64,000 nucleotides of DNA, taken from positions 96,001 to 160,000 of the forward strand of contig CBDEUM010000039.1 of assembly GCA_965242925.1 (NCBI GenBank), in the 5' to 3' direction. The notes under the pieces are model-generated. The model saw nothing but the letters and a program-made list of their open reading frames with translations. It was not told where the DNA came from and searched no databases. Shown here piece after piece: positions 3,099 to 42,200 of this stretch (position 1 is its first letter; every line of letters begins with the position of its first letter). The DNA comes from Roseibacillus sp. GTDB taxonomy: Bacteria; Verrucomicrobiota; Verrucomicrobiia; Verrucomicrobiales; Akkermansiaceae. The position numbers and the translations under genes were made by a program.

Positions 3099-3196
3099 GC
3101 CTATTCTGAAATGGGGCCTTGGTAGACGTCCCGTTGCTCCCCCCAACCTATCTTGAGAGGGCTCCACGCTGCGCATCGTCGAAGGCGATGTGCCCG

Positions 3197-3227: not shown

Positions 3228-3392
3228 AAGTTATGTTAATAAGTGTCGGGTATTTTAGCCCGAATGCAATCTGAAAGAGACTATTTCTTGCCTCTCTTCC
3301 GGGATGAAGTGGATCAGAATCCCACAAAATCTCGCTCTCATCTCTCCGGAACTGGAACGGCCGTTCCCTCTCTTCGCTCCGGATGGGGAGGG

Positions 3393-7235: not shown

Positions 7236-7513
7236 TAAATGAAATGGGTTCCTACTATAAAGCGCCAGAGAGGTCGCTGGCGACCTCAGATTTATTGTCA
7301 CAGCCTAAATTTCATAGAGCTCAAACTTTCCTTAATCTCATTGCGTGCACCCGCGGTCCCAGGATCTGGTCCGAGTTTCTCTTACCCATTCCGGGTATTC
7401 ACGGTCTCCGCTCCCGTCGGACCTCCTCTCTTCCTCTCTCGAATCGAGGCATGGAGTTACAAAAAGAATTGCCCCCTCCGCTCCGTATCCCTAAGCGTCT
7501 AGTAACCATAGTC

Positions 7514-8527: not shown

Positions 8528-8556
8528 GAATGCAGCGGGTTTCATAAGGGCCGGCC

Positions 8557-9069: not shown

Positions 9070-9185
9070 TAAATCAGTTCAATACCACCCTGGATCTTCC
9101 CGGGGTCCTGCCAGAAAATATCCCGGAACATCATCTCGTCCGGGCTCATGCAGCAATCGGGCGCAAAAAAACAGCCTGCCTTTCC

Positions 9186-14352: not shown

Positions 14353-17149
14353 CTAGCGCGTTTTGCGGCTGCGTGAGTTCTTGGCCGCCTCCCGCCGGAC
14401 CGCCTCCGTCTTCTGCCGGCGCGCCGCCGCCTGGGCCTCCGCCCGCGACTTGGCTTCTCCCCGCGCTCTCGCCTCCGCGGCCGCCCGCTGGGCATCTGCC
14501 TGGCGCCGGGCTTGCACGGCTGCGGCCTTCCGTTGCGCGTCCAGTTCGGCACGGCGTTGGGCATCCGCCCGCGCACGGACTGCTTCCGCCCGCCGCTGGG
14601 CGTCGATCTGGGCCTTGCGCCGGGCGTCCAGTTCAGCCCGCCTGCGGGATTCCTCCACCTTTTGACGGGCGAGGGCCTGCCCTCTGGCGTCCTCGGCCTG
14701 CTGACGCGCCATCGCCTGGCGCTTGGCTTCCGTCAACTTCTGTTCGGCCAGGGCCCGGCGTCTGGCATCCTCGGTCTTCTGCTGGGCAAGGGCACGACGC
14801 TTCGCCTCTTCGGCCTGCTGGCGGGCCAGCGCCTGCTTCCTGGCATCGGCCTCCGCCTGCTCACGGGCCAGTTCCGCTCGCTTCGCTTCAGCCTGCTTCC
14901 GCTCGGCCAGAACCCGGCGCTTGGCCTCTTCCGCCTTCCCATGAGCCAGAGCCCGCCTTCCCATGAGCCAAGGCCTGACGCGCCATTTCCTCGCGCTTTC
15001 ATCTGCCTCTGCCTGCTTCTGCTCGACCAAGGCCGAGGGCCCGGCGCTTCACCTGTGCAAGAGCCCGGCGCTTCCGCCTTCTGCTCGACCAAGAGCACGA
15101 CGCTTCACCTCCTCGGAACGCTGACGCGCCATTTCCTCGCGCTTGGCTTCCGACAGTTTCTGCTCCGCAAGAGCCCGGCGTTTGCCTCCTCAGCCTGCTT
15201 CCTCGACCAAGGCACGACGCTTCACCTCTTCCGCTTTCTGCTTCTGCTCGGCAAGAGCACGCCGCTTCCCCTCCTCATCTTTCTGCTCCGCAACGCCTCC
15301 TCAGCCTGCTTCTGCTCGACCAAGGCACGACGCTTCACCTCTCCGCTTTCTGTTCGGCAAGAGCACGCCGCTTCCCCTCCTCATCTTTCTGCTCCGCAAG
15401 AGCCCGGCGCTTGGCCTCCTCAGCCTGCTTCTGCTCGACCAAGGCACGACGCTTCACCTCTTCCCCCTTCTCACGGGCCAAGGCCTGACGTTTTCTTTCA
15501 TCTGCCTCCACCTGCTGCTGGGCCAACGCCCGGCGCTTCGCTTCCCCCGCTTTCTCTTCGTCAGCGTTCCGCCGGCGGCCCTCCCGGAGAGCAGTTGCGT
15601 TTTCACCCCCGCCAGGCCCAGGTCCCACAACTGGCCCCCGCCTTCTCAGCGATTCGCGCACCGCTGCCACTTCCTTCCCGGCCTTCTCGATCATCCGTTG
15701 TGCCTCCGCACGCTCCTTGGGCTGCAATTTCCGGTCCTGCATGCGGCGTTCCGCGGCCACCACCGCTTCGCTGGCAGCACGCAGGCTCTCCTCCGCTTTT
15801 GCCCTCCGCCGCTGCCTGTCCTCCAGGGGATTCTCCTCCTGCTGTTCTCCCGCGGTCCTCCGCCGTTGCAGATTGTTGCGCAGGGCCGCCTGGCATTCCG
15901 TCGTCGCGATGGCTTCCCGCGCGCCCTCATGTCTCCGCACCGAGGCCTCATGATGCCGGTGCCTGAGATCCCGTTTGATTTCCCTCTTGCCGGCCCGCAC
16001 GATATCGACCCGACCGAGGTCACCCGCTACCCGGCTGGGACAGACTGCGGCATTCCAGGGTGCATCGACCCGCGGAGCGAAGACGTGCAACCTGTCCTCG
16101 TGCAGACGATGATGCTGACGGTGGGCGAAGTGGTCGCGGCCGCCCCCGAAGTCGAGCTGGCAGCGACGCCCGGGCCGCCGCGCGTGCCGATTGACCCAGG
16201 CGAAGTCCGGACCCCCGCAATGCACGTGGTTTCCCCGCATCGAAAAGCGCGTTACGTTGCGGGTGTTGATGATGATGGTGATCACCGTCACCCGCGGCAC
16301 GCAGTGCGGCTGCACCGGCTCGTAGAAGTGGTCCACCGGGACAAAGTTGTAGTAGTCGGGAGACACATCGTAGGCCAGGTCGATTCCCGGATCGTAATCG
16401 TATACCTCGTCATAGAGGGTCTCGGGCGGCAGGGGTGCCCATCCCAGATAGTCGTCATTCTGGCGCCATGACACCCAGGCCGGGGCCCAGTCATCCCCCG
16501 GCACCCACACCCAGCCGTGCTCGGCGAGGAGAACCCAGCGACCGTAGTGATAGACCGCCCAGCCAAAGGGCTCGTCCGAGAGCCAGGTCCAGCCCTGGTC
16601 GGAATTCACCCAGCGGCCCCGGGTGTAGGGCCTCCAGGCCGGATCTGTCTGCAAGGTCGATGGCTGCCAAACGAATCCGTAGTCCCGGGTCTCAAACCAC
16701 TCCCCGAACCTCGAGAGCTCCGCAAAGAAGATCTGATGGTCCCCGGTATCGAGCAGCACGGCCGGGACTGTCGCCTCAATTGCCACCGCCTTTTCCTCCT
16801 CCGGAAGAAGTTCCCCATTCCGGGGTGCTTCCTCCACTACGATAGCCCGGGGCACATTCGTGAAATCCGCCGCATCGCCGGGTTCGGCCTCAATGATCCC
16901 GGCATCATCCGGCGCCCCGTCCACATCGGGATCCTCCCCTTCCAGGGCGGTGAGCGCGATCTCCAGCTGGCGACGTGCCTCCTCCAACTCCGCATCGAGG
17001 GCGGCATCCTCGCGCTCCTTCTCGAGCTGCGCGACCTTCTCCTTCAGTTTCCTTGATTCGATATCTGCCGAGAACTTCGCGAAATCACAGGCAGGTAAAA
17101 CACACCCACCAACAAGAGCCAGGGAAAGGAACAGGAAACGCTTCATCAT
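14353..17149 (-). CDS. Putative lipoprotein with Trp-rich DUF6600-like domain and long TolA-like A/E/K/R/Q-rich repetitive tail (several frameshifts in 15000-15350)
   Basis: Signal peptide with Cys; WRPYTRGRWV..DQGWTWLSDEPFGWAVYHYGRW..GWVWVPG..WAPAWVSWR..LGWAPLPP. ORFs 15335..17149 and 14353..15030 share the same EAKRRALAEQK repeat. Confidence 0.7.
14620..15560 (-). repeat. Coding tandem repeat, about 39 nt (13 aa) unit with an approximately 117-nt higher-order unit
   Basis: Peptide units EAKRRALAQQKTE / DARRRALAEQKLT / EAKRQAMARQQAE / DARGQALARQKVE; near-identical DNA blocks starting at about 15184, 15295 and 15414 (gcctcctcagcctgctt...aaggcacgacgcttcacctc). Confidence 0.85.
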
Positions 17150-22448: not shown

Positions 22449-25400
22449 CTACCCCAGCAGCCTCCCAAGTTCCTTCCCGGCCTCCTCCACCCAGGCGTTT
22501 CCAGGCAGGGCATAGGGCCGGAAGGTCTCCAGGGAGCCTTCGTGCTCATTATAGAAGAGAGCGCGGTGCATGCCGAGGTTGCTTGCCGCCGGACTGTCCA
22601 CCAGGGCGGCCGAATCGTTCTGGCTCATCTGGAAAATAACCCGCATCTCGAATTCGCTCAGCGCCTTCCGGCTCAGGAAACGGTTCACATTGTTGGAGGT
22701 ATCAACCGTTGCCATCACGTGCAGCCCGTACCCCGTCCCCTCCGTCACGATTTCGTTGAGCTGCGCCCCCGGGTTGGGACCCGCATCGTCGCTGTCGAAC
22801 GAAAAATCGAAGTCATCCTCGTGCTTGAGATTCTTGAACTTCTGCAGGTTGTGGATCAGCAGGAAGACCGGCGGGTCATTGGCGGCGATCTCCTCGTCCG
22901 CCGCCCTCCGTTTCATTTCCTCGCCCAGCTCGCCCATCACACGTGGCAGATCGTTGTTTTTGACGACCTCCACCTGGTGTGGCACCGCTTCCACCACTCT
23001 CTGCAGGAACGCGGACTCGGACGACCCGGGGGTGGTTCCGTCACATACAATGAACCGGATCCCACCCTTCGCAGACTGGGCGGAAAGGGAGACCAGCGAA
23101 ACGGCCAGCATGGCCAGGGCCGCCTCCTCCCGCTGGCCGATCACGATCAGGTTGTTCCCACTCTGGCGATGGAAGGTTGCCTCCGTTGGACCCTTGATGG
23201 AGTTGGGAGAACCCAGCCAGGACCGCTTGGAGAAAGAAGATTCGACCGCCTCGGCGTGCAGGAGTCCGTGGAGTAACCCGTTCTCGCCAACATCAGCCGG
23301 AGAGTTCCCCTCGAAGACAATGGGAGTGGAACAGTCATACGAGTTCTCCTCCGCGATCTTGAGGACATGCTGAAGAGACTGATCCCGCTCTTCATCCGGC
23401 AGCCAGACCACCTGGAACGGGCTGTTGGCTTCCAGGGCACCGGCGCTGTCGTTGTAGATCCCCTCCCCCGGGCGTGTCAGCATGCGTGGGGCAGGGTTGG
23501 AGTCATCCATGATGAGATAGGCATCCGACTCATTGCACTGAAGCGCCACCCGGATGACCATCTGACCCATCGTGGTACGGGCCATGCTGTAGGCGCCGCC
23601 CAGTGTCTGTGACCCAAGCAGCACATGAATGCCGAAGGCACGGCCCTGGCGCACAATGCGATCCAGAAGGACCGAGGCATCCTGTGCGATGCGATCGTCT
23701 TCCACGAAGAGTTCCTGGAACTCGTCGATAATCAGGAGGGATCGCGGCACCGACTCGCTCCCGCCCGCCCTCTTATAGCCAGCCACGTCCTGCACCCCCA
23801 GCTTGCGGAACATGTCCCCCCGCCGCTTCAATTCCTCGTCCACCCTCTTGAGCACGCTCAGGCCGAACTCCCGGTCACTCTCGATCGCCACCACCCGCGC
23901 GTGCGGCAGACGCGCCGCCGCGTAGCATTTGAATTCCACCCCCTTCTTGAAATCCACCAGGTAGAACTCCACCTGGTCGGGGTTGCACCAGAGCGAGAGA
24001 TTCGAAATGATCACATGAAAGAGCGTCGACTTACCCGATCCCGTTTTCCCCGCAAATAGAGCGTGCTGCCGGGTTCCCTTCCCGATCGCAAGATACTGCA
24101 GCTTGGTCGCTCCAGTTCTCCCGATGGGCACTCTCAACTCATTGGTGGTGTCGCTGCTCCAGAATTCACCCTCCTTCGGAATGACGTGCTGGAAAGGCAC
24201 TTCCACCCGGTTCGCATCGACGCTGCTGGCGCCGATCTTGTGAATGAACTCGATCGCAATCTCGGGATCGGGTGCGGGGTCGAACTCCAGCGGCGTCCCG
24301 TTCTGATCGTTCGTGCCCACCAGGAAGCGATCGCCCTCGCAGCGGATGCGGATGCTGTTCTCGCGGAGAACCTCCGGCATCATCTCAGCCGGACCGCCGG
24401 TCTGCTGGTGATCCCAGTGCATCAGGGTGTAAATCCCGCAACGGGGTCCGCTCATCGCGATGCTCTGCAGGCGCTTGGCCGCCGTCTCGCTGAAGCCCGA
24501 GGGAAAGTCCGCAATGACGAGGAAGTGATACTTCTCCGCAATATTGCCCGCCTGCTCGTTGTAGTCCGTAATGGTATCGTACTCATTGCGGAGATACATC
24601 TGGATCACTTTCTCGATATGCTCGTTGAGCTCACCCAGCTTCTCCTCGATCTGCCCCCGCTGCGTCCAGATCCTCCCGTTGATCACACTGTCCTCGTAGT
24701 CAGCCAGATGCATGATCCCCGCGAAGTTTTCCCCCAGCCCAACCGGATCGATAATGGTGAAGTTCAGCTTGCCCGGCGGGGTGGTGGCCAGCAGGCGCAG
24801 GATGATGTTGTTGAGCGCCTCAAGCGCCGTTTCACGTCCAAACCCGTCAGTCTCGAAAAGCAGCGATCCGTCGTGGGGCAGTTGCAGGGCCATGGGAACC
24901 TCGATCGCTCTCGCATCCGGAAGGCTCAGGTTGAGCTCCTCTGCCAGCGTATCCCCGGCCACGGAAACCCGGCCGAAGCGCGCCACATCGTGCAATTCGG
25001 CGGAGGGCTGCCACCGCTCAAGATAACTCTGCTCCCACGGCGGGGTGAGGGGCGCCAGCGACTCCGCTATCACTCCCGCCTCCTGGTAGATCGACTGCAC
25101 CCGCGCGGTCCACTCCGCCTCCATTTCATTTCGAGCCTCCTCGTAGGTCTCTTCTGCTTCCCCCACCTCCTCATCGTGTTCCGCCTGCAGGCTGGCGATA
25201 CGGTCAGCGGCTCCCTGCTGCAATTCCTCCAGACGCCCTTCGTGGAGGGAATTTAACGGACCCACGATGCGATCGCGCATCTCATCATTCCTGGCCCGGG
25301 CGCGCTGGTATTTTTCTTCGATCCTGCCTCCGCCCTCTTCCCGCAGTTTGCTTGCAGCCTCATCGGCCTGCACCCAACGGTTCTCCCCCGCTGCTTCCTC

Positions 25401-26333
25401 GGCAGCCAGTTGCTCCTCCTCCTCCTGGAAGCGCTGGGAAATCCGCTCCGAACAGACAGCCCAGGCCCGCCTTGTCCTCTCAATCTGCTCCGCCACCGCC
25501 CCAGCCGCCGGCTCTGCTCCTCCGCCGGTGGCCAATTGCAGCAGGAAAATGAGAAGGACGGTACCCCCGGCCACCCAACCCGCAAGCGACCAGACCGCTT
25601 CTCCTCCCTCCCAGAAGTTGGAGAGGTAAACAGCGGCACCCCATCCCAGAACCAATAAAAGCCACCAGGGGAAAACGCTCAGCAATCGCGCCAGGCCGTT
25701 TTTCCTGAAGACGGCCAGCTTCTCTTCTCCCTCCGCAATCCCCTTCCGCACACGTTCCAGGAAGTCCGGTGTCTGTCCGGAGGTGTCCAACTCACCCAGC
25801 TCGAGGGATTCTCCATAGGCCGGGTTGAGCTTCTTCTGGAAACGCGGATAGCCGCGCATCGCACCACTGCTCTTCCGCTGTAACTTGTGAAGGTTCTGTT
25901 TTTCCTGCTCCAGCTCGGCATGCAACCCCTGGTACATCCCGGTCAGCTTTTCCAGAGACTGTTGCCGCGTGACCTTGTCGGTCACGGACCGGACCTGCAG
26001 CTCGGAGGCCGTCTTGCCCTTCAGTTCTTCCGCCCGCCGGGACAACAGACGCTTGCTGGCTGGAAGCGCGAGCTCAATCCACTCCACCCTCGCTGCATGA
26101 CGGGTTTCGGCGTGTTCCTTCTCGTCAGCCGAACGAGCCTCCGCCGTCGTGATGGCTGTCTCCAGCAGTTCCTTTTCCTTCTCCCCTCCCTGCTCAAAGG
26201 CCCGCTTGGCGGCAAAGCTCCTGGTCCGCCGCAGCTTGGCAGCCGCCTCCTCGCGCTCCGAAAACTCCCCGATCGCCCCCGCCAGTCCATTGGCGAGTTC
26301 CAATCCTCTACTGACTCCAAGTCTAGTCCTCAC
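22449..26333 (-). CDS. Membrane-anchored FtsK/SpoIIIE-family ATPase, EccC/EssC-like (1294 aa)
   Basis: N-terminal coiled coil, two TM helices, second coiled coil, then HALFAGKTGSGKST (Walker A), VDFKKGVEF, LLIIDEFQ (Walker B) and RQGRAFGIHVLLGSQ, flanked by two degenerate ATPase-like repeats. GTG start overlaps the upstream stop. Confidence 0.9.
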   Translation of the reverse strand: MRTRLGVSRGLELANGLAGAIGEFSEREEAAAKLRRTRSFAAKRAFEQGGEKEKELLETAITTAEARSADEKEHAETRHAARVEWIELALPASKRLLSRRAEELKGKTASELQVRSVTDKVTRQQSLEKLTGMYQGLHAELEQEKQNLHKLQRKSSGAMRGYPRFQKKLNPAYGESLELGELDTSGQTPDFLERVRKGIAEGEEKLAVFRKNGLARLLSVFPWWLLLVLGWGAAVYLSNFWEGGEAVWSLAGWVAGGTVLLIFLLQLATGGGAEPAAGAVAEQIERTRRAWAVCSERISQRFQEEEEQLAAEEAAGENRWVQADEAASKLREEGGGRIEEKYQRARARNDEMRDRIVGPLNSLHEGRLEELQQGAADRIASLQAEHDEEVGEAEETYEEARNEMEAEWTARVQSIYQEAGVIAESLAPLTPPWEQSYLERWQPSAELHDVARFGRVSVAGDTLAEELNLSLPDARAIEVPMALQLPHDGSLLFETDGFGRETALEALNNIILRLLATTPPGKLNFTIIDPVGLGENFAGIMHLADYEDSVINGRIWTQRGQIEEKLGELNEHIEKVIQMYLRNEYDTITDYNEQAGNIAEKYHFLVIADFPSGFSETAAKRLQSIAMSGPRCGIYTLMHWDHQQTGGPAEMMPEVLRENSIRIRCEGDRFLVGTNDQNGTPLEFDPAPDPEIAIEFIHKIGASSVDANRVEVPFQHVIPKEGEFWSSDTTNELRVPIGRTGATKLQYLAIGKGTRQHALFAGKTGSGKSTLFHVIISNLSLWCNPDQVEFYLVDFKKGVEFKCYAAARLPHARVVAIESDREFGLSVLKRVDEELKRRGDMFRKLGVQDVAGYKRAGGSESVPRSLLIIDEFQELFVEDDRIAQDASVLLDRIVRQGRAFGIHVLLGSQTLGGAYSMARTTMGQMVIRVALQCNESDAYLIMDDSNPAPRMLTRPGEGIYNDSAGALEANSPFQVVWLPDEERDQSLQHVLKIAEENSYDCSTPIVFEGNSPADVGENGLLHGLLHAEAVESSFSKRSWLGSPNSIKGPTEATFHRQSGNNLIVIGQREEAALAMLAVSLVSLSAQSAKGGIRFIVCDGTTPGSSESAFLQRVVEAVPHQVEVVKNNDLPRVMGELGEEMKRRAADEEIAANDPPVFLLIHNLQKFKNLKHEDDFDFSFDSDDAGPNPGAQLNEIVTEGTGYGLHVMATVDTSNNVNRFLSRKALSEFEMRVIFQMSQNDSAALVDSPAASNLGMHRALFYNEHEGSLETFRPYALPGNAWVEEAGKELGRLLG

Positions 26334-26538
26334 AATCGCGCCGGGCTCTGGTTACAATCTTGTCGATCTCCTCGATCACCCGGATGGCTGCCGAGATATC
26401 GTCGGGAAGCGTTTCAATAAAGTCCTTTTCGAACTCTCTCTGCCTGCTGTCACGCCAATGGGCCTTCACCTGGTCCCAGCTCTGCAGGATGGCCTTGGTG
26501 GACTTGGTCAGTTTCACCGCACTCGCTCTCGCGCTCAT
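26323..26538 (-). CDS. Small WXG100-like helical protein (71 aa)
   Basis: W28-R-D-x5-F-x3-F has the same spacing as the 90-aa WXG100 protein; overlaps both neighbours. Confidence 0.7.
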   Translation of the reverse strand: MSARASAVKLTKSTKAILQSWDQVKAHWRDSRQREFEKDFIETLPDDISAAIRVIEEIDKIVTRARRDCED

Positions 26539-27104
26539 GCCGCCCCCCCTTCCTCTGCAGCGGACCCCTTCTCCGCCCTCTCCTCTTCCTTCTCTGCCCC
26601 CGCGTCCGGTCCATCGCTCCCTCCGCCCTCCGACGCGATGCGGGTGTAATCGTCGAGGGTCCGCTCCGCCTGCGCAAGGGAGGAGACCGCCTTGGGCAGA
26701 TCATGGGACGCAAAGTGCTGCATGCCATCCAGCTTCTTGATCAGAGGCTCGACCAGACTATCGTAATTGCGAATCCACTTCTGCAGCGCCTTGGCCCGCT
26801 CCTCGGTCTCCCTGACCATCCGCCGGAGCCGCGTAACCGCCATCTGCCGTGCCGCACTGTGGCTTGTCATGGCGCTGAGACGCGAGGTGAACAACTCGGC
26901 CTCCGCCTGCTCCAGTTGCTTGCGCAGACGTTTGAGCTGCCCACCCCAGTAGGCCCGTTGATCCACCTGCAGCCACGTCCGCATGCGGCGCACTTCGTCA
27001 CGCACCTCGTCCAGGGCATTCCCCACCGAGCCCATGTAGATGATAAGGCTCGAGCGGAATGAAGTGAGTGCGTCAACTGATGTGACCTTGGCCTGCCGGT
27101 CCAT
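26535..27104 (-). CDS. Extended WXG100/LXG-like coiled-coil protein (189 aa)
   Basis: Helical throughout, W44 and W53-G-G, acidic low-complexity tail; stop overlaps the next ATG (ATGA). Confidence 0.7.
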   Translation of the reverse strand: MDRQAKVTSVDALTSFRSSLIIYMGSVGNALDEVRDEVRRMRTWLQVDQRAYWGGQLKRLRKQLEQAEAELFTSRLSAMTSHSAARQMAVTRLRRMVRETEERAKALQKWIRNYDSLVEPLIKKLDGMQHFASHDLPKAVSSLAQAERTLDDYTRIASEGGGSDGPDAGAEKEEERAEKGSAAEEGGAA

Positions 27105-27129
27105 GCAAAAACGGGGGGTGACAATCTGC

Positions 27130-27402
27130 CTAGCGCTGGTCGAGGTATTCCTCGATCCGCTGCGCCTTGCGCAACAGGAAGGGTGTATGTTTCTCGGAGA
27201 TCTCGATAAACTTCTTCAGTGCCTTCATCGTTCCGACAAACTCTTCCGCGAATTTCTGGTTCTCCTGGTCCTTCCAGGTATCCCCCAGGGCAGTGAACCG
27301 GGACTGCAGGGACGATGCCTTCACCTGGAGTTCGTCATTGAATCGTTTCAGTTCCTTGGCGAACCGCCGGACTTCATCCGGATCCATTATTGCCTGGGAC
27401 AT
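27130..27402 (-). CDS. WXG100/ESAT-6 family protein (90 aa)
   Basis: MSQAIMDPDEVRRFAKEL...LGDTWKDQENQKFAEEF...KAQRIEEYL: about 90 aa helix-turn-helix with central W43. Start trimmed from 27564. Confidence 0.88.
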   Translation of the reverse strand: MSQAIMDPDEVRRFAKELKRFNDELQVKASSLQSRFTALGDTWKDQENQKFAEEFVGTMKALKKFIEISEKHTPFLLRKAQRIEEYLDQR

Positions 27403-27514
27403 AGCTGTGATCGAGTGCGGGAGGTGTTTGAAGTCTGGGATCACCGCCTGCGACCGGCAAGGACAGATCTCTACGTATATCAGTGAAACCCTGCTCCAGA
27501 GAGAAAGTTTCCTT

Positions 27515-27544: not shown

Positions 27545-30307
27545 TCACTGCCCGTCAGCTGCAAGGTAGGCCAGCAGGTTGGCCATCTCCTGCAGACTCA
27601 GTCCACTCTCAAGCCCGGTCGGCATGAGGGAACGATTCAGATTCACCAGTCTCGCGATCTCCTTCCGCGCGACCTTGCGTGAGGTGCCGTCAGCGAACCA
27701 GAGGGTCAACTCCCTGGCATCCTCCTCCGAGATCACACCCGCCAGCATTGCGCCATCCTGCAGGTGGACTTCCCACAGGGAATACTGCGGAGCAACTTCG
27801 CGGTCCGGGGCAAGCAGGTTTTCCAGCAGCATGGGGGCACCCTTGTTGCGAAGAGTCGCAAGATCCGGTCCCGCTCCATTCTGTCCGCTCTTGTGACAAA
27901 GGGCACAACGCTGCCCGAAGAGAACCTTCCCCTCCCTGCCGTCACCCTCCAGCCTGAGAGCCGGACGGTAATGCGCCGTGGCCTCATCCCGTGTCAGGAC
28001 TCTCTCCTCCCCGAAAATCGCTACCGCCCGCCCGCTCAATTTCTGATCGAGGTGGGAACGCAGACCCTGCTGTTGCTGGAACCCGACCTCGCTCGCTGCC
28101 ACCCGCTTCTCTTCGATGGCGGAGAGAACTGTCGCTGCCGACATCCTGGTCAGCAGACTCCCCCTCGCCCGCACCGGAATCTTTTCCCACTGGTCCAGGG
28201 CCTCCCCCTCCCACTCACTGGCTGGTCGGCGCAACAGCGCCGGGAAAGCGGAATTCTCCCCTTCACCCTCCACCACCCACGCCAACAGATTCCCCGCCCC
28301 GGTCTCAGGATGATTTGCCAGCACCCACCGGGCAGCGTCCCGTTGTTCCCCCGGCGGTTCTCCCTTGCCCATTTTCTCCCGCGCCTGGACAACCAACGCC
28401 CGGGCCATGGGATGATCACTGGCAACCCCGGCATCCCGCAGGAGCTTCACTGCCCGGGAAAAGTCATCCTGCCTGCCAACCAGTTCCGCCAGGACTCCAT
28501 GAATCCTGGCGGCAGCCAGAGTCACCCCTCTCATCCAGGGATCTTCCCGGGCCGCCTCCAGAAATCGCCCGAGCACTCCCACGGTCACCTCTTCCCCGGG
28601 ATCGAGCGTTCGCAGGACCGCTTCGAAGCGCACACCGTGATCAGCATCCCGCGACCAGGCCTCCAGGCGATCGGCGTCCACCTCCATCCACATCCGCACC
28701 AGCTGCTGGCGCACTTCGGGACTGGATTCACCCTCCCACAACTGAAGGGCCTCCTCTTCCGTCAGTGGCCGGAGCCGTGCCAGGAGCCGGAGCGCCTGCG
28801 TCCGCGCCCGCGGGTCCCGCATCCGGTCCCGTGCCAGCCCGGCCACCAAGTCCGCCGCGCCTTGTTCTTTCCGTTCCAGCAGGAGACGCATGGCCGTGTC
28901 GCGCTCCCAGCCGTTGCCGCTTTCCAGCAACTTCACCAGGCCGGCTACCGTCAACCGGGACCGCTCCGCAGGGGCCGTGGTCCTGAAGTCTTCCGGAACC
29001 ACCCGCCAGATCCGTCCCCGGTCCGTCCCGCTGTAGAGATCGAGGTGTTTCTTGATGGACTCCGGAATCGACCAGGGATGCTCGATGGTCTCACGGTACA
29101 TATCCACCACGTAGAGTGCCCCATCCGGACCATTGGCACACTGCACCGGGCGGAACCAGTTGTCACTGGAAGCCAGGAATTCCGACCTTTTCAGCAGATC
29201 CGGTCTCCGTGCCACCGGCTGCACCCGGTCCTTCGGAAACTCAATCAACTTCTGGTGCACCAGGTTGCTTCCCACGTCCCCTACGAAAACAGTCCCCTGC
29301 TGGTCCCTGTCGAAGGCATCTCCACGATAAACCGTCAATCCGCTCGCGGAGGTAAAGTATCCAGCCGCCCGACCTCCTCCCTCCACCGGCCCCATCACCC
29401 TGCCCTGCACCCGCCACCGGGTCCGCACCACCCGCCACGGTTCCACTCCGCTGATGCGGAAGACCTCCGCCGCCCCCCCGTCGACCGGAATCTCCACCAG
29501 GGGATGAGGCAACCCACCCATCCGATTCCAGGGCCACGAGTAGATCACCGCCATGAGATGCCGGCTGTTGCTGCAGACATAGCGTCGCCCGAAGTCATCG
29601 AAGGTCAGTCCGAACTGCGCCGTTCCCGACTCCGGGCGCAGGATGAGCGACTCCGGGTCGAAGGAAAAATCCGATCCGCGGAGATCCAGTCCCCCGCTCT
29701 TTTCCGACTCCATTCTTACAGTCCCCGCGTTCGAGGAGGTGGAGCCGTAAATCCGCCCGTCCGGTCCCCATTGCAGGTTGTTGACCAGGGCCTGCATGTT
29801 GAGGGGATCCTGGCCAGCGCCGAATCCGGTGAAGACGGTCCTGCGTTCCTCGGCCACTCCGTCCCCGTCATGGTCGCCAAGATAAAGAATGTCTGGCGAG
29901 GCCGTGACGAAGACGCCCCCCTTCCAGCAGACCACCCCGGTGGGCCACTTCAGATTGTCTGCAAATACAGTGGCATGTTCGTAGCGGCCATCCCGGTCAC
30001 GGTCCTCAAGAAGCCGGATCCGACCCAGTGCCTGCTCCCGGCGTTCGGGGTAACCCCGCATCTCAGTAACGAAGAGCCGCCCATCTTCATCGAAGGCGAT
30101 CGCCACCGGATCGACCACCTGCGGTTCGCAGGCAGCAACTTCAATCCGGAAGCCCGATGCGAGTTGGAATGAAGCAGCCGCAGCCGCTGGATCCAGAGGG
30201 GCAATACGCGGTAATTCGGCGGGGTCGGGCTCGGGTTCACCCGCGTCCACAACCCTGCCCGCAAGAAGCACAACCAGAACGAGAGAGGACCAGAATTTCG
30301 TGAGCAT
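27545..30307 (-). CDS. PVC-type membrane-bound dehydrogenase-like beta-propeller + HEAT repeats + c-type heme domain protein
   Basis: EPQVVDPVAIAFDEDGRLFV, WGPDGRIY, WFRPV..GPDGALYVVDMYR, GRIWRV; C-terminal CALCH, GPDL and SLMPTGLE. Confidence 0.88.
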   Translation of the reverse strand: MLTKFWSSLVLVVLLAGRVVDAGEPEPDPAELPRIAPLDPAAAAASFQLASGFRIEVAACEPQVVDPVAIAFDEDGRLFVTEMRGYPERREQALGRIRLLEDRDRDGRYEHATVFADNLKWPTGVVCWKGGVFVTASPDILYLGDHDGDGVAEERRTVFTGFGAGQDPLNMQALVNNLQWGPDGRIYGSTSSNAGTVRMESEKSGGLDLRGSDFSFDPESLILRPESGTAQFGLTFDDFGRRYVCSNSRHLMAVIYSWPWNRMGGLPHPLVEIPVDGGAAEVFRISGVEPWRVVRTRWRVQGRVMGPVEGGGRAAGYFTSASGLTVYRGDAFDRDQQGTVFVGDVGSNLVHQKLIEFPKDRVQPVARRPDLLKRSEFLASSDNWFRPVQCANGPDGALYVVDMYRETIEHPWSIPESIKKHLDLYSGTDRGRIWRVVPEDFRTTAPAERSRLTVAGLVKLLESGNGWERDTAMRLLLERKEQGAADLVAGLARDRMRDPRARTQALRLLARLRPLTEEEALQLWEGESSPEVRQQLVRMWMEVDADRLEAWSRDADHGVRFEAVLRTLDPGEEVTVGVLGRFLEAAREDPWMRGVTLAAARIHGVLAELVGRQDDFSRAVKLLRDAGVASDHPMARALVVQAREKMGKGEPPGEQRDAARWVLANHPETGAGNLLAWVVEGEGENSAFPALLRRPASEWEGEALDQWEKIPVRARGSLLTRMSAATVLSAIEEKRVAASEVGFQQQQGLRSHLDQKLSGRAVAIFGEERVLTRDEATAHYRPALRLEGDGREGKVLFGQRCALCHKSGQNGAGPDLATLRNKGAPMLLENLLAPDREVAPQYSLWEVHLQDGAMLAGVISEEDARELTLWFADGTSRKVARKEIARLVNLNRSLMPTGLESGLSLQEMANLLAYLAADGQ

Positions 30308-30527
30308 TGGGAGTCTCCTTCCCGGACGGGGCAACAGGAGCACGAATTACAGCCCTTGACTACCATTATCACGCTTCCCTGCCACCCAGGACACCTCCTT
30401 CGGAAAGGATTCCAGACCCCGCACCGGCATGACTGTCTATCATCCGTCCCGAACATCCTGAAGCAAGTCCCCCTCTTCTCTGGGCCTTTGACTTTCCCGC
30501 CTGCGATCTCTAGAGCTACCACTGCCC

Positions 30528-33844: not shown

Positions 33845-34813
33845 TCAATCTCCGTAACCATCCGGATGGGCCTCGTGCCACTTCCAGGCACTCCGCACCG
33901 TCTCCTCCAGGTCAGTGGCGGGCGCCCAGTCGAACACCGCTGCAGCCTTTTCACTGGCTGCCACCAGGACCGGCGGATCACCTTCCCGGCGATTCCCTTC
34001 CTCCACTGGGATCTCGTGTCCGGTGACCCTGCGACAGGCCTCGATCACTTCCCACACCGAATACCCCCGGCCCGTCCCCAGGTTAAAGGCCCCGCTCACC
34101 TCCCCTTCCACAGCCTGGCGATGCACTGCCGCCAGATCGCAGACGTGAACGTAGTCCCGTACGGCAGATCCATCCGGCGTTTCATAATCCGTTCCGAACA
34201 CCTCTATCGCGTCGCGTTTGCCCTGCGCCACGAACAGGACATTTGGAATGAGATGGGTCTCAATCCGATGGTCTTCCCCGAACCTCGCGGACGCCCCGGA
34301 CGCATTGAAATAGCGGAAAATGACCGGGGTGATCCCGTGGATCTTCGCGAACCACGACAACATGCCTTCAAAGGTGAGCTTGGAGTGACCATAGGGGTTG
34401 ACCGGATTCTGCGGGCAGTCTTCATCGATCGGTACCCTCTCGGGGATGCCGTAGGTGGCGCAGGTGGAGGAGAACACTATCTTCGAAACCTCCGCCCCGA
34501 CCATCCCTTCCAGCAGGCTCAATCCGCCCATTACGTTATTGCGATAGTACTTGGCCGGGTTCTCCATCGATTCCCCCACCAGCGCATCCGCGGCATAATG
34601 GATGACCGCCTCCGTTTCATGATCTCGCAATACATCGGTCAGGCGGGCGGTCTCCCTCAGGTCCATGACCTCCAGTCCCGCCCGCGGGTCAACCGCTCCG
34701 CGATGTCCCTCCCCGAGATTGTCGATGACAATGACGTCGTGCCCCGAGTCGCAGAGCAACTCGACGCACACGCTACCGATGTAGCCGGCTCCTCCGGTCA
34801 CAGCAATTCTCAT
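33845..34813 (-). CDS. galE: UDP-glucose 4-epimerase
   Basis: TGGAGYIGS, VGESMENP..YY.NN, FSSTCATYG, YGHSK, FRYFNA, ETHLIP, VRDYVHV. Confidence 0.93.
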   Translation of the reverse strand: MRIAVTGGAGYIGSVCVELLCDSGHDVIVIDNLGEGHRGAVDPRAGLEVMDLRETARLTDVLRDHETEAVIHYAADALVGESMENPAKYYRNNVMGGLSLLEGMVGAEVSKIVFSSTCATYGIPERVPIDEDCPQNPVNPYGHSKLTFEGMLSWFAKIHGITPVIFRYFNASGASARFGEDHRIETHLIPNVLFVAQGKRDAIEVFGTDYETPDGSAVRDYVHVCDLAAVHRQAVEGEVSGAFNLGTGRGYSVWEVIEACRRVTGHEIPVEEGNRREGDPPVLVAASEKAAAVFDWAPATDLEETVRSAWKWHEAHPDGYGD

Positions 34814-34915
34814 AAAAAGTCGGAGCCCCTACTAAACCGCGCGCTTCAGAGCTTGTCGAGCGTTCCCAAATTCAATTACTTGAAAGACTGGACCAGTTTC
34901 CCCCATACTCCTGCC

Positions 34916-37429
34916 GTGGCACCGAATCTACACACGGGCATTCTGCTTGTATTCATCAGTGCGGTGTCGGTCTCCGCGGAACCTGCCGGGCAACTCGACC
35001 CCGCCCACGTTAGCTTCTTCGAGAAGCGTGTGCGCCCCGTCCTGGTCAACCGCTGCTACCAGTGCCACTCGGCCGGGAAAAAGATCAAGGGAGGCCTCCG
35101 GCTCGACCACAGGGAGGGCGTCGTCCGCGGTGGTGACAGCGGCCCCGTCATCGTTCCTGGCAATCCCGAAAAGAGCCTCCTCATCACCGCAATCCGGCAT
35201 ACCGATGATGATCTCAAGATGCCGAAGAAGGAGAAACTCCCCGAACAGGAGATCGCGGCCCTGACTAAGTGGGTGACCCTTGGTGCTCCCGACCCCCGTG
35301 TAGAAGAAAGCGAACCCTTCAAGGCCGCTGAAATCGATTACGAGGAAGGACGCAAGTTCTGGTCCTTCATTCCCCCAGCCAGGCAGAATGCCCCAGCCGT
35401 GAAGGACACCAGCTGGCCCCTCACTGAAATCGACCGCTTCATCCTCGCCGCCATGGAAGACAAGGGACTGGAACCGGTTGCCGACGCCGATCGCCGGACC
35501 CTGGTGCGACGACTCTACTTTGACCTCATCGGACTCCCGCCTACCATCGAGCAGATCAATGCCTTCCTCCATGACGAAGGCTCCATCCCCGAAGCAGTCG
35601 CCCGACTCGTCGACCAGCTCCTTGCTTCTCCCCATTTCGGAGAGCGCTGGGGACGGCACTGGCTCGACGTGGCCCGCTTCAGCGAGTCGAATGGGATGGA
35701 GCGCAATTTCACTTATCCCCATGCCTGGCGCTACCGCGACTACGTGATCGCTTCCTTCAACAAGGACAAGCCCTACAACCAGTTCATTCGCGAGCAACTG
35801 GCCGGCGATCTCCTCGACGAAACCAGCACCCCGGGCAGCACGCGCGAGGAACGCCTCACCGCCACCGGCTTCCTCGCCCTCGGCCCGAAGATTCTCAACG
35901 AGCGCGACAAGCAGGTCTTCCAGATGGAGATGGTCGACGAACAGATCGATGCCTCCACCCGGGCCGTGCTCGGATTGACCGTCAGCTGTGCCCGCTGTCA
36001 CGATCACAAGTTCGATCCCATCGGAACCAAGGACTACTATGCCCTCGCCGGCATCTTCACCAGTAGCCGCACCCTTTACGGCACCAAGGGCGGTGGCGGC
36101 AACCGCCAGCCCGCCCAACTCCTTGCCGTCGGCGATGAGGATCCCGCCCAGGCCGCCGCCCGGGAAAACCACCAGAAAACCCTCAAGACCGTCCAGGGGA
36201 AACTCACCAAAACCACCAAGCAATACCAGAACCTCAAGAAGCAGAGCGCCAGGAACAAGGGCAAGAAACCTGGCAATGCAAAGAAGAACAGCCCCGGGGA
36301 GAACACTACGGGACCGGAAAAGCGCATGGCGGAGATGCGCAGTCAGATGGAAAACATGAAGAAGGAGGTCGCCCGGTTACGGAAGAGCGCCCCTCCTGAC
36401 CCGGACTTTGTAATGGGCGTCACCGAGGGGACCGCAGCCGATTGTCGAATCTGCCTGCGCGGCGACCCGAAGAAGCGCGGTCCTGCGGTGGAGCGGGGAT
36501 TCCTCAATGTGATCGCAGCGTCCAACCAGCCCCCCATCAATGATGAGTCCAGTGGCCGGCGCGAACTGGCTGAATGGATGGTAGCCCGCGAAAATCCCCT
36601 CGCGGCACGCGTGATGGTGAACCGCATCTGGCACCACCTCTTTGGCGCCGGACTGGTCCGCACGGTCGACAACTTCGGGAAGATGGGGGAGACCCCTTCC
36701 AACCCAGCCCTGCTCGATCAGCTCGCGGTCAACTTCATGGAAAACGGCTGGTCAGTGAAGAAACTCATCCGGGAGCTCACCTCTTCCCGCATTTACCAGT
36801 TGAGCGGAAACCACCATGAGAAGAACTACCAGCTCGACCCCGAAAACCGCCTCTGCTGGCAGATGAGCCGGCGCCGCCTCGGGGCCGAGGCCATCCGCGA
36901 TGCCATCCTCCAGGCCGGCGGGCAACTCGAAACATCGCCATTCCCCGGCTCGGTGCTGCAGGAACTAGGTGACGTCAACTACGGCCGCAGCAATGCCGCG
37001 TCATTCGGCAAGGAGGTTGCCAGACACCGCAGCATCTACCTCCCCATCATCCGCAATGCCCTGCCGGAGGCTCTCCGGGTCTTCGACTTCGCTGAGCCCA
37101 GCCTCATCGTGGGGCGCCGCCAGATCACAACCGTAGCCACCCAGGCCCTCTATCTGCTCAACGATCCCTTCGTTCTTGAGCAGACCGATGCCATCGCCCA
37201 GCGCCTGATCGACTTCAGCACAGAGGAAACGGAGCGCATTGACCTTGCCTACACCCTGACCCTCGGCCGTCCGGCCACCACCCTCGAACGCGAGCGCTCC
37301 CTCGCGCTGCTGCAGGATATTGGAGCCGGTCTCAGCACGCGAAGAACGACCAGGAATCGCCAACGCGTGGCCTGGGCCACCCTGGCCCAGGGCCTCATCG
37401 CCTCGGCGGAATTCCGCTATCTGAACTAG
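34916..37429 (+). CDS. Planctomycete cytochrome c + DUF1549 + DUF1553 (PSD1) protein
   Basis: FFEKRVRPVL..CYQCH, GERWGRHWLDVARF, CARCHDHKFDP, RVMVNRIWHHLFG, QALYLLN. Start placed at GTG 34916 (uncertain); the longer ORF-track start overlaps galE antisense. Confidence 0.9.
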   Translation: MAPNLHTGILLVFISAVSVSAEPAGQLDPAHVSFFEKRVRPVLVNRCYQCHSAGKKIKGGLRLDHREGVVRGGDSGPVIVPGNPEKSLLITAIRHTDDDLKMPKKEKLPEQEIAALTKWVTLGAPDPRVEESEPFKAAEIDYEEGRKFWSFIPPARQNAPAVKDTSWPLTEIDRFILAAMEDKGLEPVADADRRTLVRRLYFDLIGLPPTIEQINAFLHDEGSIPEAVARLVDQLLASPHFGERWGRHWLDVARFSESNGMERNFTYPHAWRYRDYVIASFNKDKPYNQFIREQLAGDLLDETSTPGSTREERLTATGFLALGPKILNERDKQVFQMEMVDEQIDASTRAVLGLTVSCARCHDHKFDPIGTKDYYALAGIFTSSRTLYGTKGGGGNRQPAQLLAVGDEDPAQAAARENHQKTLKTVQGKLTKTTKQYQNLKKQSARNKGKKPGNAKKNSPGENTTGPEKRMAEMRSQMENMKKEVARLRKSAPPDPDFVMGVTEGTAADCRICLRGDPKKRGPAVERGFLNVIAASNQPPINDESSGRRELAEWMVARENPLAARVMVNRIWHHLFGAGLVRTVDNFGKMGETPSNPALLDQLAVNFMENGWSVKKLIRELTSSRIYQLSGNHHEKNYQLDPENRLCWQMSRRRLGAEAIRDAILQAGGQLETSPFPGSVLQELGDVNYGRSNAASFGKEVARHRSIYLPIIRNALPEALRVFDFAEPSLIVGRRQITTVATQALYLLNDPFVLEQTDAIAQRLIDFSTEETERIDLAYTLTLGRPATTLERERSLALLQDIGAGLSTRRTTRNRQRVAWATLAQGLIASAEFRYLN

Positions 37430-39258: not shown

Positions 39259-42200
39259 ATGCCCCTGCTCTCTCATTTCGCGGCGTTCGTGTTCCTGTGC
39301 GCTCTCTCACTGTTCCCCGCTTCTCTTCAGGCCCTCACCGTTCTCGGAACCGGAACGGGCGCCCTTCTCGGCGGAGATCTCACCGACCCGGAAGACGATG
39401 GTAATGATGGCAACGGCAGCGGCTTCAATTGGCTCTCCACCGCCGCCTCTTCCGAGAACAACTTCGGAGGCGAGGGCGCCCTCGACGTCTTCGACAACCA
39501 GGTCGGATCCGGCAACACCAAGTGGTGCTGCAACGCTCCGCCCCAGTGGGTCGCCGTGCAACTCGACAAGCCCTACGTCCTCACTCACTTCACCCTCGCG
39601 GCAGGAAATGATGTCCCCAGCCGCGATCCCAACATCTGGTCCATTGAGGGATCAAATGATGGGACCAACTGGACCCCGATTTACCAATGGACCAGCGGAG
39701 TCTCTCCCTTTTCCAATCGCCTTGAAGTCATTCGCTTCGACGGCAACGGCCAGGACTTCGCCTCTCCCGCCCCCTTCAGCTGGTTCCGCTACCGTGTGAC
39801 CTCCACTGACAGCGGCCACCAACTCAATGAACTGGAACTCTTCGGCGTTCCGGTAGTGGTCTTCAACGACTTCTCGATCGACAAGCCTCTTATCCCCACC
39901 GGCGAGCCCATCACTCTCTCCTGGGATCTCGACCCGGGCGTAACCAGCATTTCCATCGACAACGGCGTGGGAGACGTCACCGCTCAGACTTTCAATGGTA
40001 TCGGACAGATCACCCTCAATCCCGGTCCCGGCAGCAATACCACCTACACCATGACCGCGATCCACCCGGAGTCGACCGCGCAGCAATCAGTCCATGTCAC
40101 GGTCACCAATCAACCCATCATCAATTCCTTCGCCGCCACCCCGGCCGTCATCGCTCCCGGGGGATCCACCACCCTCCGGTGGGATGTCTTCAACATCAGC
40201 TCCCTAGATCTAAACGGCAGCGACGTGACCGGACAGACAAGTCTGGCGGTCAGCCCCGCCAGCACCACCGTCTACACCCTGACCGCCAGCAATCCCAATG
40301 GCTCCGACGTCGCCAACCTGAACGTCACCGTGGTCGTGCCCGGTGAGCCCATCATCAGCGAATTCATGGCGTCCAACGGAGGCGCCTCTATCGTGGACGA
40401 AGACGGCGATTCTTCGGACTGGATCGAAATCCACAACCCCAGCGGGAACATCGCCATGCTTGACGGCTACTACCTCACTGATGATCCGGGCGACCTTCAG
40501 AAGTGGGCGTTCCCCGCCGTCAATCTGGCCCCCCTCGACTACCTCATCGTCTTTGCCTCCGGAAAGGACCGGGTCAACCCCGCCTCCGAGCTGCACACCA
40601 ACTTCAACCTGGACGCCAACGGCGAGTATCTCGCCCTCGTCAACCCCGATGGCGTCACCATCGTGAGCGAATTCGGCCCGGCCGGCACTGATTACCCGGA
40701 GCAGGAAGCCGATCTCTCCTTCGGCAACTTCGGGAATCCTCCCCAGCCCGGATATTTCGACACTGCCACCCCGGGTGCAGCCAATAACGTCGGCTTCCTC
40801 GGCTTCGTGGCCGACACCAAGTTCGACCTCAACCGCGGGTTCTACAACAGTCCCCAGTCGGTCACCATTAGCACCGCCACGCCTGGTGCCTCCATCCGCT
40901 ACACCACCGATGGATCATGGCCCAGCGAGACCTCCGGCACGCTCTACTCCGGTCCCGTTCTCATCAATCGCACCACTCCCCTGCGCGCCATCGCCTACAA
41001 GGCCAGTCATCGTCCCACCAACGTCGACACCCACACCTACATTTTTGTCGACGACATCATCACCCAGAGGTCCTCCACCACCCAGTCGATTTGGGGATTC
41101 CCCTCCAGCTGGGATGGCAACTCGGTCGACTACGGCATGAACTCCAGCGTGGTTTCCCTTCACAACCGCACCATTCGCAATGATCTCAAGACCGTGCCCA
41201 CGCTCTCCATCGCGATGGACTCGGACGACCTCTTCGGAAGCAGAGGGGTCTACTCTCATCCCCAAAACAGCGGCGTGAGCTGGGAACGGGCCACCTCGCT
41301 CGAACTGATCGATCCCGCCAATCCCGACGGCAGCAGCGACTTTCAGCACAACTGCGGCATCCGCATCCAGGGCGGAGCCTTCCGCAGTTTCGGACTGACC
41401 CGCAAGAAGTCCTTCCGCGTCCTCTTCAAGGACATCTACGGGACCAGTAAGCTGCGCTATCCCTTCTTCGGGCCCACCGCAGCCCAGCAGTTCGATACCC
41501 TGATTTTCCGCATGGAGTCCAATGACGGCTACCAGTGGGGCAACCGGACCAACGTGCAGTACGCCCGCGATGAATTCGGGCGCCGCTCGCAGCTCGCCAT
41601 GGGCAGCCCTTCCCCCACGGCCGCTTCATGCACATCTACCTCAATGGCGTCTACTGGGGACTCTACAACGTGGTCGAACGGCCCGACGACTCTATGGGCG
41701 AAAACTATTTCGGCGCCCGCAAGGAAGACTGGGATGGCGTCAACTCCGGCAATGCCACCAACGAGGGAAGCACCTCCTCCTGGAACCGGCTCAAGAGCCT
41801 GGCAAGCGGTATTCCCAACGCGGGCAGTGAGTCCTCCCGCACTGCCATCTACATGGAAGCCCAGGGCCTCAATCCCGACGGCACCGACAACCCGACAAAG
41901 GCCGACTACATCGACATCGACAACTACATCGATTACCTCCTCGTCAACTGGTACATGGGCAATAACGACTGGCCCCACAAGAACTACTACCATGGTCGCG
42001 AACGTGACCTTCTCGACAACGCGCCCTTCACCGGCACCCGTAGCAGCAGCGGAACGCACTTTTTCTGCTGGGACGCCGAATGGGCCCTCTTTCTCAATTC
42101 AAGCAGCGACAAGACCGGTTCGACCTCCGGGGTGGCCGAGCCCTACGGAGACCTCCGCAGCAGCAGGGAATTCCGCGTGCGCTTCGGGGACCGGGCCCAC

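Follow-up and report, generated by a model that had tools for sequence, protein, structure and literature searches.

What does an EccC-type motor do in an outer-membrane bacterium when it is encoded without the accessory membrane proteins of canonical type VII secretion systems (T7SS)? The question is raised by a four-gene cassette in 64,000 nt of DNA from Roseibacillus sp. (assembly GCA_965242925.1, contig CBDEUM010000039.1, positions 96,001-160,000; hereafter the window), which encodes a 90-aa WXG100-type protein, two further small proteins of 189 and 71 aa and a 1294-aa ATPase. We hold with high confidence that this cassette is a member of a stand-alone, minimal type VII-like class. Taken as a whole, it is best explained as an EccC-like motor that handles two kinds of helical bundle at the inner membrane, a reading to which we give a probability of about 0.55. 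The four genes are arranged as follows:

27130..27402, minus strand: 90-aa WXG100-like protein, ATG start at 27402 (Pfam WXG100)
26535..27104, minus strand: 189-aa protein, predicted long helical hairpin with a disordered acidic/Pro-rich tail (AlphaFold2 model)
26323..26538, minus strand: 71-aa small helical protein (family alignment)
22449..26333, minus strand: 1294-aa EccC/EssC-like membrane ATPase, GTG start (FtsK_SpoIIIE match)

Re-derivation from the minus-strand open reading frames (ORFs) returned the same four co-oriented genes as the initial annotation, with a 25-nt gap between the 90- and 189-aa genes, a 4-nt ATGA overlap between the 189- and 71-aa genes and an 11-nt overlap between the 71-aa and ATPase genes. 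The longest ORF of the 90-aa gene extends to 27564; the ATG at 27402 is taken as the family start because 28 of 28 aligned homologues open with M-[ASP]-Q-A. ATPase relatives occur in at least 586 species of the genome collection (586 of the 589 matched stretches encode one), and loci were compared on 80 kept from these species, among them Chthoniobacter flavus Ellin428 (L071), Prosthecobacter, Luteolibacter and Limisphaera. In these 80 loci, phmmer recovered the 90-aa gene 68 times, the 189-aa gene 70 times, and the 71-aa and ATPase genes 73 times each. Gene order was counted at the 66 loci where the ATPase ORF is complete and preceded by over 1300 nt of sequence, and all three small genes stand in the window's order at 63 of them (exceptions, L021, L052 and L083). 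The four genes are conserved together and spaced like an operon. This recurrence, together with the Pfam WXG100 and FtsK_SpoIIIE scores given below, argues that they are not chance ORFs, and the proposal that a WXG100 protein and an EccC-like two-transmembrane (TM) ATPase form a compact conserved module is well supported.

Extra DNA lies between cassette genes in L036, L039, L055 and L061, and by eye it was taken for mobile or toxin-antitoxin DNA and not for accessory genes that are conserved. L036 has two ~98-aa ORFs, toxin-antitoxin-like by eye, between the 189- and 71-aa genes (3063-3966), and L055 has ~6 kb with transposase-like and other ORFs, also judged by eye, between the 71-aa gene and the ATPase (4053-9923). 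When ORFs were clustered across the 80 loci, only the four genes and their shadow frames exceeded 14 loci; the commonest real neighbour was present in 9 of the 80.

Is the ATPase a type VII-like motor or a DNA pump? It had been described as a two-TM FtsK/SpoIIIE ATPase, and indeed its hydropathy profile has two segments (~217-237 and 246-268) and the protein matches Pfam FtsK_SpoIIIE with 100.5 bits (E 1.2e-28). This family membership, and the names given to homologues by JGI, such as 'DNA segregation ATPase FtsK/SpoIIIE', would suit an FtsK/TraB-type translocase that moves DNA during chromosome segregation or conjugation. The solved relatives speak for a different ancestry: in profile searches against the PDB, the best matches were EccC (4nh0, 4.4e-29), EccC5 (7np7, 2.6e-27) and YukB (5.6e-20), and FtsK followed at 1e-7, that is, E values of the order of 1e-29 for EccC against 1e-7 for FtsK. 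The NCBIfam FtsK model gave 26.9 bits against a cut-off of 1566, and the NCBIfam models of EccCa (114.1 bits against 509.15), EssC (95.6 against 778.4) and EccCb (87.3 against 346.55) matched partially and far below their cut-offs. Judged by sequence comparison, the ATPase is far nearer EccC/EssC than FtsK. In addition, a true FtsK is encoded elsewhere in the host genome (217 bits, contig C33), the ATPase is always linked to WXG100-type genes, and relaxase or transfer genes number 0 among 120 flanking proteins scanned with Pfam (two per side at 30 loci). A DNA translocase is thus highly improbable.

The ATPase is ordered as an N-terminal helix, a membrane hairpin, a second helix and three modules, D0, D1 and D2:

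25860..26315, minus strand: N-terminal long helix, residues 7-158 (AlphaFold2, pLDDT 82.2)
25530..25685, minus strand: membrane hairpin, residues ~217-268 (hydropathy)
25047..25529, minus strand: post-membrane long helix, residues 269-429, continuous with TM2 (AlphaFold2)
24174..24896, minus strand: D0, degenerate FtsK-like module without the P-loop lysine (FtsK_SpoIIIE 21.7 bits)
23334..24173, minus strand: D1, active ATPase module, with Walker A at 24027-24050 and K768 (FtsK_SpoIIIE 84.7 bits alone)
22452..23333, minus strand: D2, degenerate duplicate of the ATPase module (hhalign against D1)

The N-terminal model covers residues 1-480 and was built from a 32-row alignment. It predicts one helix at 7-158 and, beyond a linker of poor confidence, TM1 at 223-240 and another helix at 246-429 that starts as TM2; we infer that the long helices at 7-158 and 269-429 come together as a cytoplasmic stalk. 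The length of this stalk appears to be kept across the family while its sequence drifts; Walker A falls at 758-805 in the 21 hairpin-bearing ATPases listed. There is a single Walker A (GKTGSGKS, 762-769) and a single Walker B (866-871) in the whole protein. D0 (~480-720) scores 21.7 bits alone (E 1.5e-4), slightly below the 24-bit FtsK_SpoIIIE cut-off, and its P-loop site is occupied by DPVGLGxNF, which is invariant across the family. The profile of D2 (1001-1294) aligns with that of D1 (721-1000) over 202 columns in hhalign (probability 96.6%, E 5.7e-10); family-wide, GKTGSGKST of D1 aligns to GQREEAxLA in D2 and the Walker B sequence IDEFQE to IHN/GLQKF. Scanned alone, D2 gave weak EccC-type matches and no Pfam match, and neither D0 nor D2 matched the PDB as a single sequence. 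As D0 lacks the P-loop, D1 is intact and D2 has its Walker motifs replaced, the layout is degenerate/active/degenerate. Among 8000 candidates scored, 5211 proteins match the ATPase at E<=0.001; of 120 listed homologues, with 49-93% identity, 117 are 1250-1330 aa long and the shorter ones include proteins of 1036 and 792 aa.

The small proteins divide differently from what had been proposed. All three had been described as Trp-centred and WXG100-like, which could be demonstrated for the 90-aa protein only (39.1 bits against Pfam WXG100, PF06013; cut-off 27.3). With NCBIfam TIGR03930, the 90-aa protein scores 30.5 bits, under the 44.85 cut-off. Its family has a mean column identity of 81% (28 sequences), and in the PDB the family profile finds HP0062 (3fx7, E 2.7e-10) first, then EsxB (4j42, 1.6e-7) and EsxA structures. 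HP0062 of Helicobacter pylori (3fx7, 2gts) is described as an 86-aa hairpin dimer with a W-R-D bend whose gene clusters with the FtsK/SpoIIIE gene HP0066, in an island reported to hold a DnaK homologue and an HNH nuclease (PMC3397514, PMC4978471). On these descriptions, this closest solved relative of the 90-aa family has in common with it a non-glycine bend and an FtsK/SpoIIIE neighbour.

The 189-aa protein is predicted by AlphaFold2 (pLDDT 87.6, pTM 0.64) to form helices at 2-76 and 80-160, followed by a low-confidence tail (161-189). The model bends at 77-79 and places W53-G-G inside helix 1, unlike a Trp-centred WXG100 hairpin. The protein belongs to no Pfam family, and NCBIfam returned two chance-level matches (E 0.004 and 0.009) far under their cut-offs. 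Foldseek against the PDB retrieved generic hairpins (HP0958, EmrA, YscO, CdvB and Vipp1), none with E<=0.001, and homology was not drawn from them. One homologue (P0234) bears the precomputed label PF28217.1, which is absent from the Pfam copy used; given this label, the 189-aa protein may already have a family in a more recent Pfam release. The 71-aa family has the invariant residues W21, W28, D30, F36 and C69, a D-C-E C-terminus and a W-R-D motif that resembles a bend. It has no family in Pfam or NCBIfam, its hhalign probability against the 90-aa family is 3.2%, and PDB searches with the 189- and 71-aa profiles found nothing below E 0.01 (the EsxA match of the 71-aa family has E 0.63). Profile-profile comparison of the three small families with one another gave no significant probability (3.2%, 4.3% and 0.4%). 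In a very small database, the 71-aa hidden Markov model matched the WXG100 proteins of two distant loci, L102 and L103 (E 6.7e-5 and 3.8e-4), which is no more than a hint of kinship with WXG100 at the sequence level. The 71-aa protein is without a significant WXG100 match in Pfam, hhalign or the PDB and appears as a hairpin only as a partner in a predicted complex.

In that prediction, three chains (90, 189 and 71 aa) were given their own alignments, the 71-aa chain was treated as the partner, and three runs were made. The 71-aa partner scored an ipSAE of 0.81 in each run, against 0.00, 0.00 and 0.51 in the controls. In a benchmark, 116 of 157 solved complexes reached this mark, as did 2 of 215 mismatched pairs, counts that are only approximate here because of the own alignments and the three chains. 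The runs share at least 96% of contacts, and the partner has a pLDDT of at least 90. In the predicted interface, the 71-aa chain takes part over its full length and the 189-aa chain through residues 3-56 and 103-146, including the conserved W44 and W53 of the 189-aa protein and W21 and W28 of the 71-aa protein; the 90-aa chain is predicted to touch the partner through residues 86-90 only. Helix would pack on helix in antiparallel pairs, so that the open half of the 189-aa hairpin becomes part of a four-helix bundle. Like EsxA/EsxB dimers, the predicted 189/71 pair thus consists of two helix-turn-helix hairpins in an antiparallel four-helix bundle; unlike them, it has unequal arms (2 x 75 against ~2 x 30 aa) and no significant WXG100 sequence similarity. 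PE/PPE and LXG/Lap bundles are a further comparison for the predicted pair.

Does the host hold the rest of a T7SS elsewhere? Its assembly (4.58 Mb, 42 contigs) is 89.9% complete and encodes LpxC (305 bits) and an Omp85 protein (33 bits, above the cut-off), from which we conclude that the organism is diderm. The gene upstream of the cassette (30343..27545) encodes a PVC-type heme-binding CxxCH protein in the NCBIfam scan, and together the three bear out the diderm verrucomicrobial host that had been presumed. Among the matches listed, the nearest ATPase homologues (89-93% identity) are named Verrucomicrobiota and Roseibacillus, and the window ATPase clusters with two Roseibacillus records on a quick tree, the only tree built, with submitters' labels. 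The cassette's 90-aa gene is the one WXG100 gene in the genome. Searches of the 89.9%-complete genome gave 0 matches for EccB (PF05108), EccD (PF19053), YukD (PF08817), EssA (PF10661), YukC/EssB (PF10140), EsaA (TIGR03929) and LXG (PF04740), so the absence of canonical T7SS membrane parts noted near the locus extends to the genome as assembled. The EccE search also found nothing, a null that is uninformative because its control matched in no genome either.

Set beside the known systems, the cassette shares cores and lacks surroundings. As in EccC of T7SSa (4nh0, 7np7), a membrane hairpin is followed by a degenerate module and then by the active D1; unlike EccC, the ATPase has one module fewer after D1, an N-terminal helical stretch of ~215 aa before the hairpin and a ~160-aa helix after it, and EccB, EccD and YukD-type genes were not found in the host genome. 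As in T7SSb, the ATPase core is homologous to EssC/YukB and is linked to a homodimer-type WXG100 protein; unlike T7SSb, the Pfam scan found no FHA domain on the ATPase, and EssA, EssB/YukC, EsaA, YukD and LXG were not found. A 2026 review still places T7SS in Actinomycetota and Bacillota.

The class itself is already in print. Zhang 2012 (Biol Direct 7:18, Table 1 footnote 6) listed a solo WXG protein with a three-module YueA-like ATPase, only the middle module being active, in verrucomicrobia and planctomycetes. The cassette has the adjoining WXG-type protein, the three modules and Walker A and B in the middle one only, in a verrucomicrobial, stand-alone setting; the footnote makes no mention of the 189- and 71-aa genes, of a helix-flanked membrane hairpin or of a function. 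Bell 2024 (eLife 13:RP94800) cites Anantharaman et al. 2012 for a stand-alone form of the operon. The novelty of organisation put forward in the initial annotation was thus overstated, and what is new here is the predicted 189/71 pair, the conservation profile and a hairpin-less clade in Prosthecobacter.

How might such a set of proteins work? In the reading that we favour, the ATPase would be a hexamer anchored in the inner membrane, by analogy with EccC/EssC, in which D1 would hydrolyse ATP while D0 and D2 would bind and gate helical-bundle clients. The clients would be the 90-aa protein, probably as a homodimer like HP0062, and the 189/71 pair, in which the 71-aa hairpin is modelled as packing antiparallel on the open half of the 189-aa protein and leaving a protruding tip and the disordered tail. 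By the same analogy, these clients would cross the cytoplasmic membrane into the periplasm or be handled at its inner face. Their export to the periplasm is the leading guess, at a little under an even chance.

Conservation was measured by part, as mean pairwise identity over the 55 loci with all four genes:

90-aa protein: 0.73
189-aa protein (1-160): 0.42
71-aa protein: 0.41
ATPase 1-215, with the N-terminal long helix: 0.24
membrane hairpin: 0.22
ATPase 271-440, with the post-membrane helix: 0.24
D0: 0.60
D1: 0.78
D2: 0.53

The 90-aa protein and D1 are co-conserved, which speaks for the favoured picture of a membrane motor. Several observations weigh against that picture, above all in its export form. 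The hairpin is the least conserved part of the cassette, and in 7 of 68 ATPases of at least 1150 aa the region ahead of the ATPase modules lacks any hydrophobic segment. In the 90-aa protein the bend reads W43-K-D45, and W-Q/K-D in 28 of 28 aligned sequences, not W-x-G; no complete YxxxD/E or HxxxD/ExxhxxxH export pattern was seen in the alignment by eye, where a truncated A80-E84-L87 is the sole fit. The conservation of this protein seems unusually high for a secreted product. No linked outer-membrane component or further membrane partner was found in the flanks (80 loci by clustering, 30 by Pfam). The score of the predicted complex may owe something to solved EsxA/EsxB-type dimers, and in the control that replaced the 189-aa chain, the 71-aa chain reached 0.51 on the 90-aa chain; a 90/71 pair is not claimed. 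Anchorless relatives in defence loci have already been reported (Bell 2024), and no experimental study of the class, including export by any member, was found in the literature, most subscription journals being outside the scope.

The hairpin-less set (L067, L075, L079, L080, L082, L083 and L092) is labelled Prosthecobacter or Verrucomicrobia throughout; the Prosthecobacter record L049 retains the hairpin. The maximum KD19 is 0.89-1.10 in these ATPases and above 1.5 elsewhere, and the alignment has a clean ~55-residue deletion exactly at the hairpin with both flanking helices retained. Walker A is retained in 7 of 7, the loci sit among ordinary genes, and all but one keep the 90-, 165-166- and 66-aa genes, L083 keeping the 66-aa gene only. 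Export through its own hairpin is therefore less likely to be the conserved core activity of the machine.

These observations bear most directly on a second explanation, in which the cassette encodes a cytoplasmic, membrane-tethered remodelling machine and not a secretion system: a ring on a coiled-coil stalk would handle bundles inside the cell, and the hairpin would merely set the location at which 90-aa dimers and 189/71 pairs are assembled, disassembled or threaded. Such a machine would account for identities of 0.22-0.24 in hairpin and stalk against 0.73-0.78 in the 90-aa protein and D1, and for the clean loss of the hairpin in 7 of 68 ATPases, 6 of which keep all three small genes. The modelled helices of ~150 and ~160 aa, if they pair, would keep the ring well away from the membrane; the 90-, 189- and 71-aa proteins showed neither a signal peptide nor a TM segment, and no other membrane part is linked. 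Against this, EccC and EssC/YukB, like every close relative of the ATPase that has been characterised, work as secretion motors, and those WXG100 proteins that have been characterised are substrates of export. In addition, one or more strongly hydrophobic segments persist at the hairpin site in 61 of 68 ATPases, and no cytoplasmic target or polymer is known. We regard this explanation as unlikely.

A third explanation arises from the distribution of the cassette. In an even phylum sample, 12 of 301 genomes (G000 included) match the ATPase at E<=1e-30, and 8 of the 12 align over at least 970 residues at 40% identity or more. A few records are named Acidoferrum, Sulfopaludibacter, Bifidobacterium, Bacteroidetes and Omnitrophota, and they nest among verrucomicrobial sequences on the quick tree; these labels are not trusted. 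Patchiness, unconserved flanks and the occurrence of Verrucomicrobiales sequences at three or more places on that tree would fit a conflict or defence module, triggered by stress or phage, as the mobile stand-alone form of the TerY-P/CoCoNuT WXG100/FtsK operons; yet the clades mostly follow orders on the quick tree, which argues against it. The literature ties WxG and FtsK pairs to TerY-P triad islands and to type III-A CoCoNuT (Bell 2024), and calls the WxG and FtsK operon a likely mobile element. Bell 2024 describes an EssC-like ATPase with two WXG100 proteins, one without WxG, in type III-A CoCoNuT/TerY-P loci. Like the window's ATPase, those copies have three ATPase domains with only the central one predicted active, and their N-terminal coiled coil exceeds 200 residues; unlike it, they are described as lacking TM helices and as lying inside defence operons with a coiled-coil nuclease. 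The window has instead the hairpin, housekeeping neighbours and, in place of the nuclease fusion, the 189-aa long hairpin.

Distant relatives do occur beside TerY-P parts. L102 (5142-12999) and L103 (5272-11375) encode a WXG100 protein (91 and 89 aa; 33.1 and 29.3 bits in Pfam), an unknown protein of 436-442 aa and an FtsK-like ATPase of ~1060 aa that is 30-36% identical to the window's; L102 adjoins PP2C and kinase genes and L103 a VWA gene, parts of the TerY-P triad, and these neighbours count for a defence role. Against it stand the flanks of the cassette, which are housekeeping or metabolic. The 120 flanking proteins have ordinary, heterogeneous functions, the exceptions being 1 DruA, 1 protein kinase, 1 VWA, 2 subtilases, 2 IS200-type transposases and 1 Fic protein; T7SS parts, PP2C, toxin-immunity pairs and nuclease or toxin partners number 0. 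TerY-P/CoCoNuT partners (VWA, PP2C, kinase and McrBC-type) are absent from the window flanks, and the absence of a nearby toxin-immunity pair claimed at the outset agrees with the Pfam scans of both the window flanks and the 120 proteins. PADLOC matched the ATPase by generic ATPase-domain likeness alone (SspH, mad8 and HerA), gave one weak JetC match to the 189-aa protein (E 0.0028) and none to the 90- or 71-aa protein. The conservation of the 90-aa protein is also unlike that of fast-evolving defence specificity parts. A defence role is accordingly rather improbable in our view.

Other variant loci were observed. The ATPases of L100 (802-10725) and L101 (6817-10665) are 40% identical, and the three small genes were not found within ~6.8 kb upstream; in L100, an ORF of 2015 aa, whose start resembles a signal peptide and which belongs to no Pfam family, stops 10 nt before the ATPase. 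In L104 (4539-9508), ORFs of 95, 113 and 181 aa without a family directly precede a 1255-aa FtsK_SpoIIIE protein, which is 27% identical to the window's ATPase.

Is the cassette transcribed? RNA-library contigs from 4 runs in 4 studies (marine metagenomes) map to all four genes at 95% likeness or more. X3 (831 nt, 26583-27413) bridges the 90/189 junction, and X5 (26085-26503) and X6 (26035-26351) bridge the 71/ATPase junction; these three leave parts of the cassette stretch without contig cover. Such contigs may hold DNA, and a single transcript for the four genes is not proven by them. The ends of X3 and X6 at 27413, from two studies, lack loose ends and lie 11 nt before the ATG of the 90-aa gene, which weakly hints at one further feature:

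27403..27413, minus strand: possible transcript 5' end (X3 and X6 both stop at 27413)

A scan for the sigma-70 consensus gave no promoter-like site ahead of the 90-aa gene, and a terminator consensus scan found terminator-like sites no more numerous than in shuffles.

Elsewhere in the window, three genes encode BamB-like PQQ_2 beta-propellers with signal-peptide-like N-termini (22365-21139, 19994-18693 and 10472-9186, minus strand). The first also trails the cassette in the Roseibacillus record L019, and unknown ORFs of 367 and 488 aa separate the first two. A 1187-aa protein with PSCyt1/PSCyt2/PSD1 architecture (planctomycete cytochrome C, DUF1549, DUF1553) is encoded at 33866-37429 (plus strand), and the same architecture flanks the cassette in the Prosthecobacter loci L082 and L092. 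At 39259-44189 (plus strand), ORFs of 989 aa (39259-42228) and 853 aa (41628-44189) overlap by ~600 nt in different frames; both have LTD/CotH-type domains, as does an intact 1503-aa gene at 49547-54058, and the pair looks like one large gene broken by a frameshift or sequencing error. The 3' end of a DUF6600 gene (17149..15335, minus strand) carries a tandem repeat at 15157-15461 (39-nt period, 7.8 copies). The repeat encodes KRRALAEQK-type charged repeats, continues beyond the stop codon at 15335 and has the most unusual composition in the window (GC 0.67, AT skew -0.34).

Why, then, does the cassette matter? Relatives of its ATPase, present in at least 586 species, stand alone, without the accessory membrane proteins that canonical systems need. 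The hairpin is both the least conserved part and the one deleted, and the 90-aa protein, the 189/71 pair and D0-D1-D2 are strongly constrained, from which one may argue for a job other than export through its own hairpin. That the conserved job is cytoplasmic, optionally membrane-tethered handling of two kinds of four-helix bundle is a minority view, to which we assign a low probability. If it were true, the cassette would represent a new kind of machine, an FtsK-like ring on a ~150-residue stalk that loads, threads or disassembles these bundles, and canonical type VII secretion would have been derived from it. The locus also opens the questions of whether EccC-type hairpins alone can form a channel and what role WXG100 proteins have in a cell with an outer membrane. 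A cultured and harmless carrier exists, Chthoniobacter flavus Ellin428, and thus the cassette is a practical way to ask how small a working EccC-type machine can be; the hairpin-less clade provides a control by nature. The value of the cassette is that of an opening for experiments and not of the discovery of a new kind of system.

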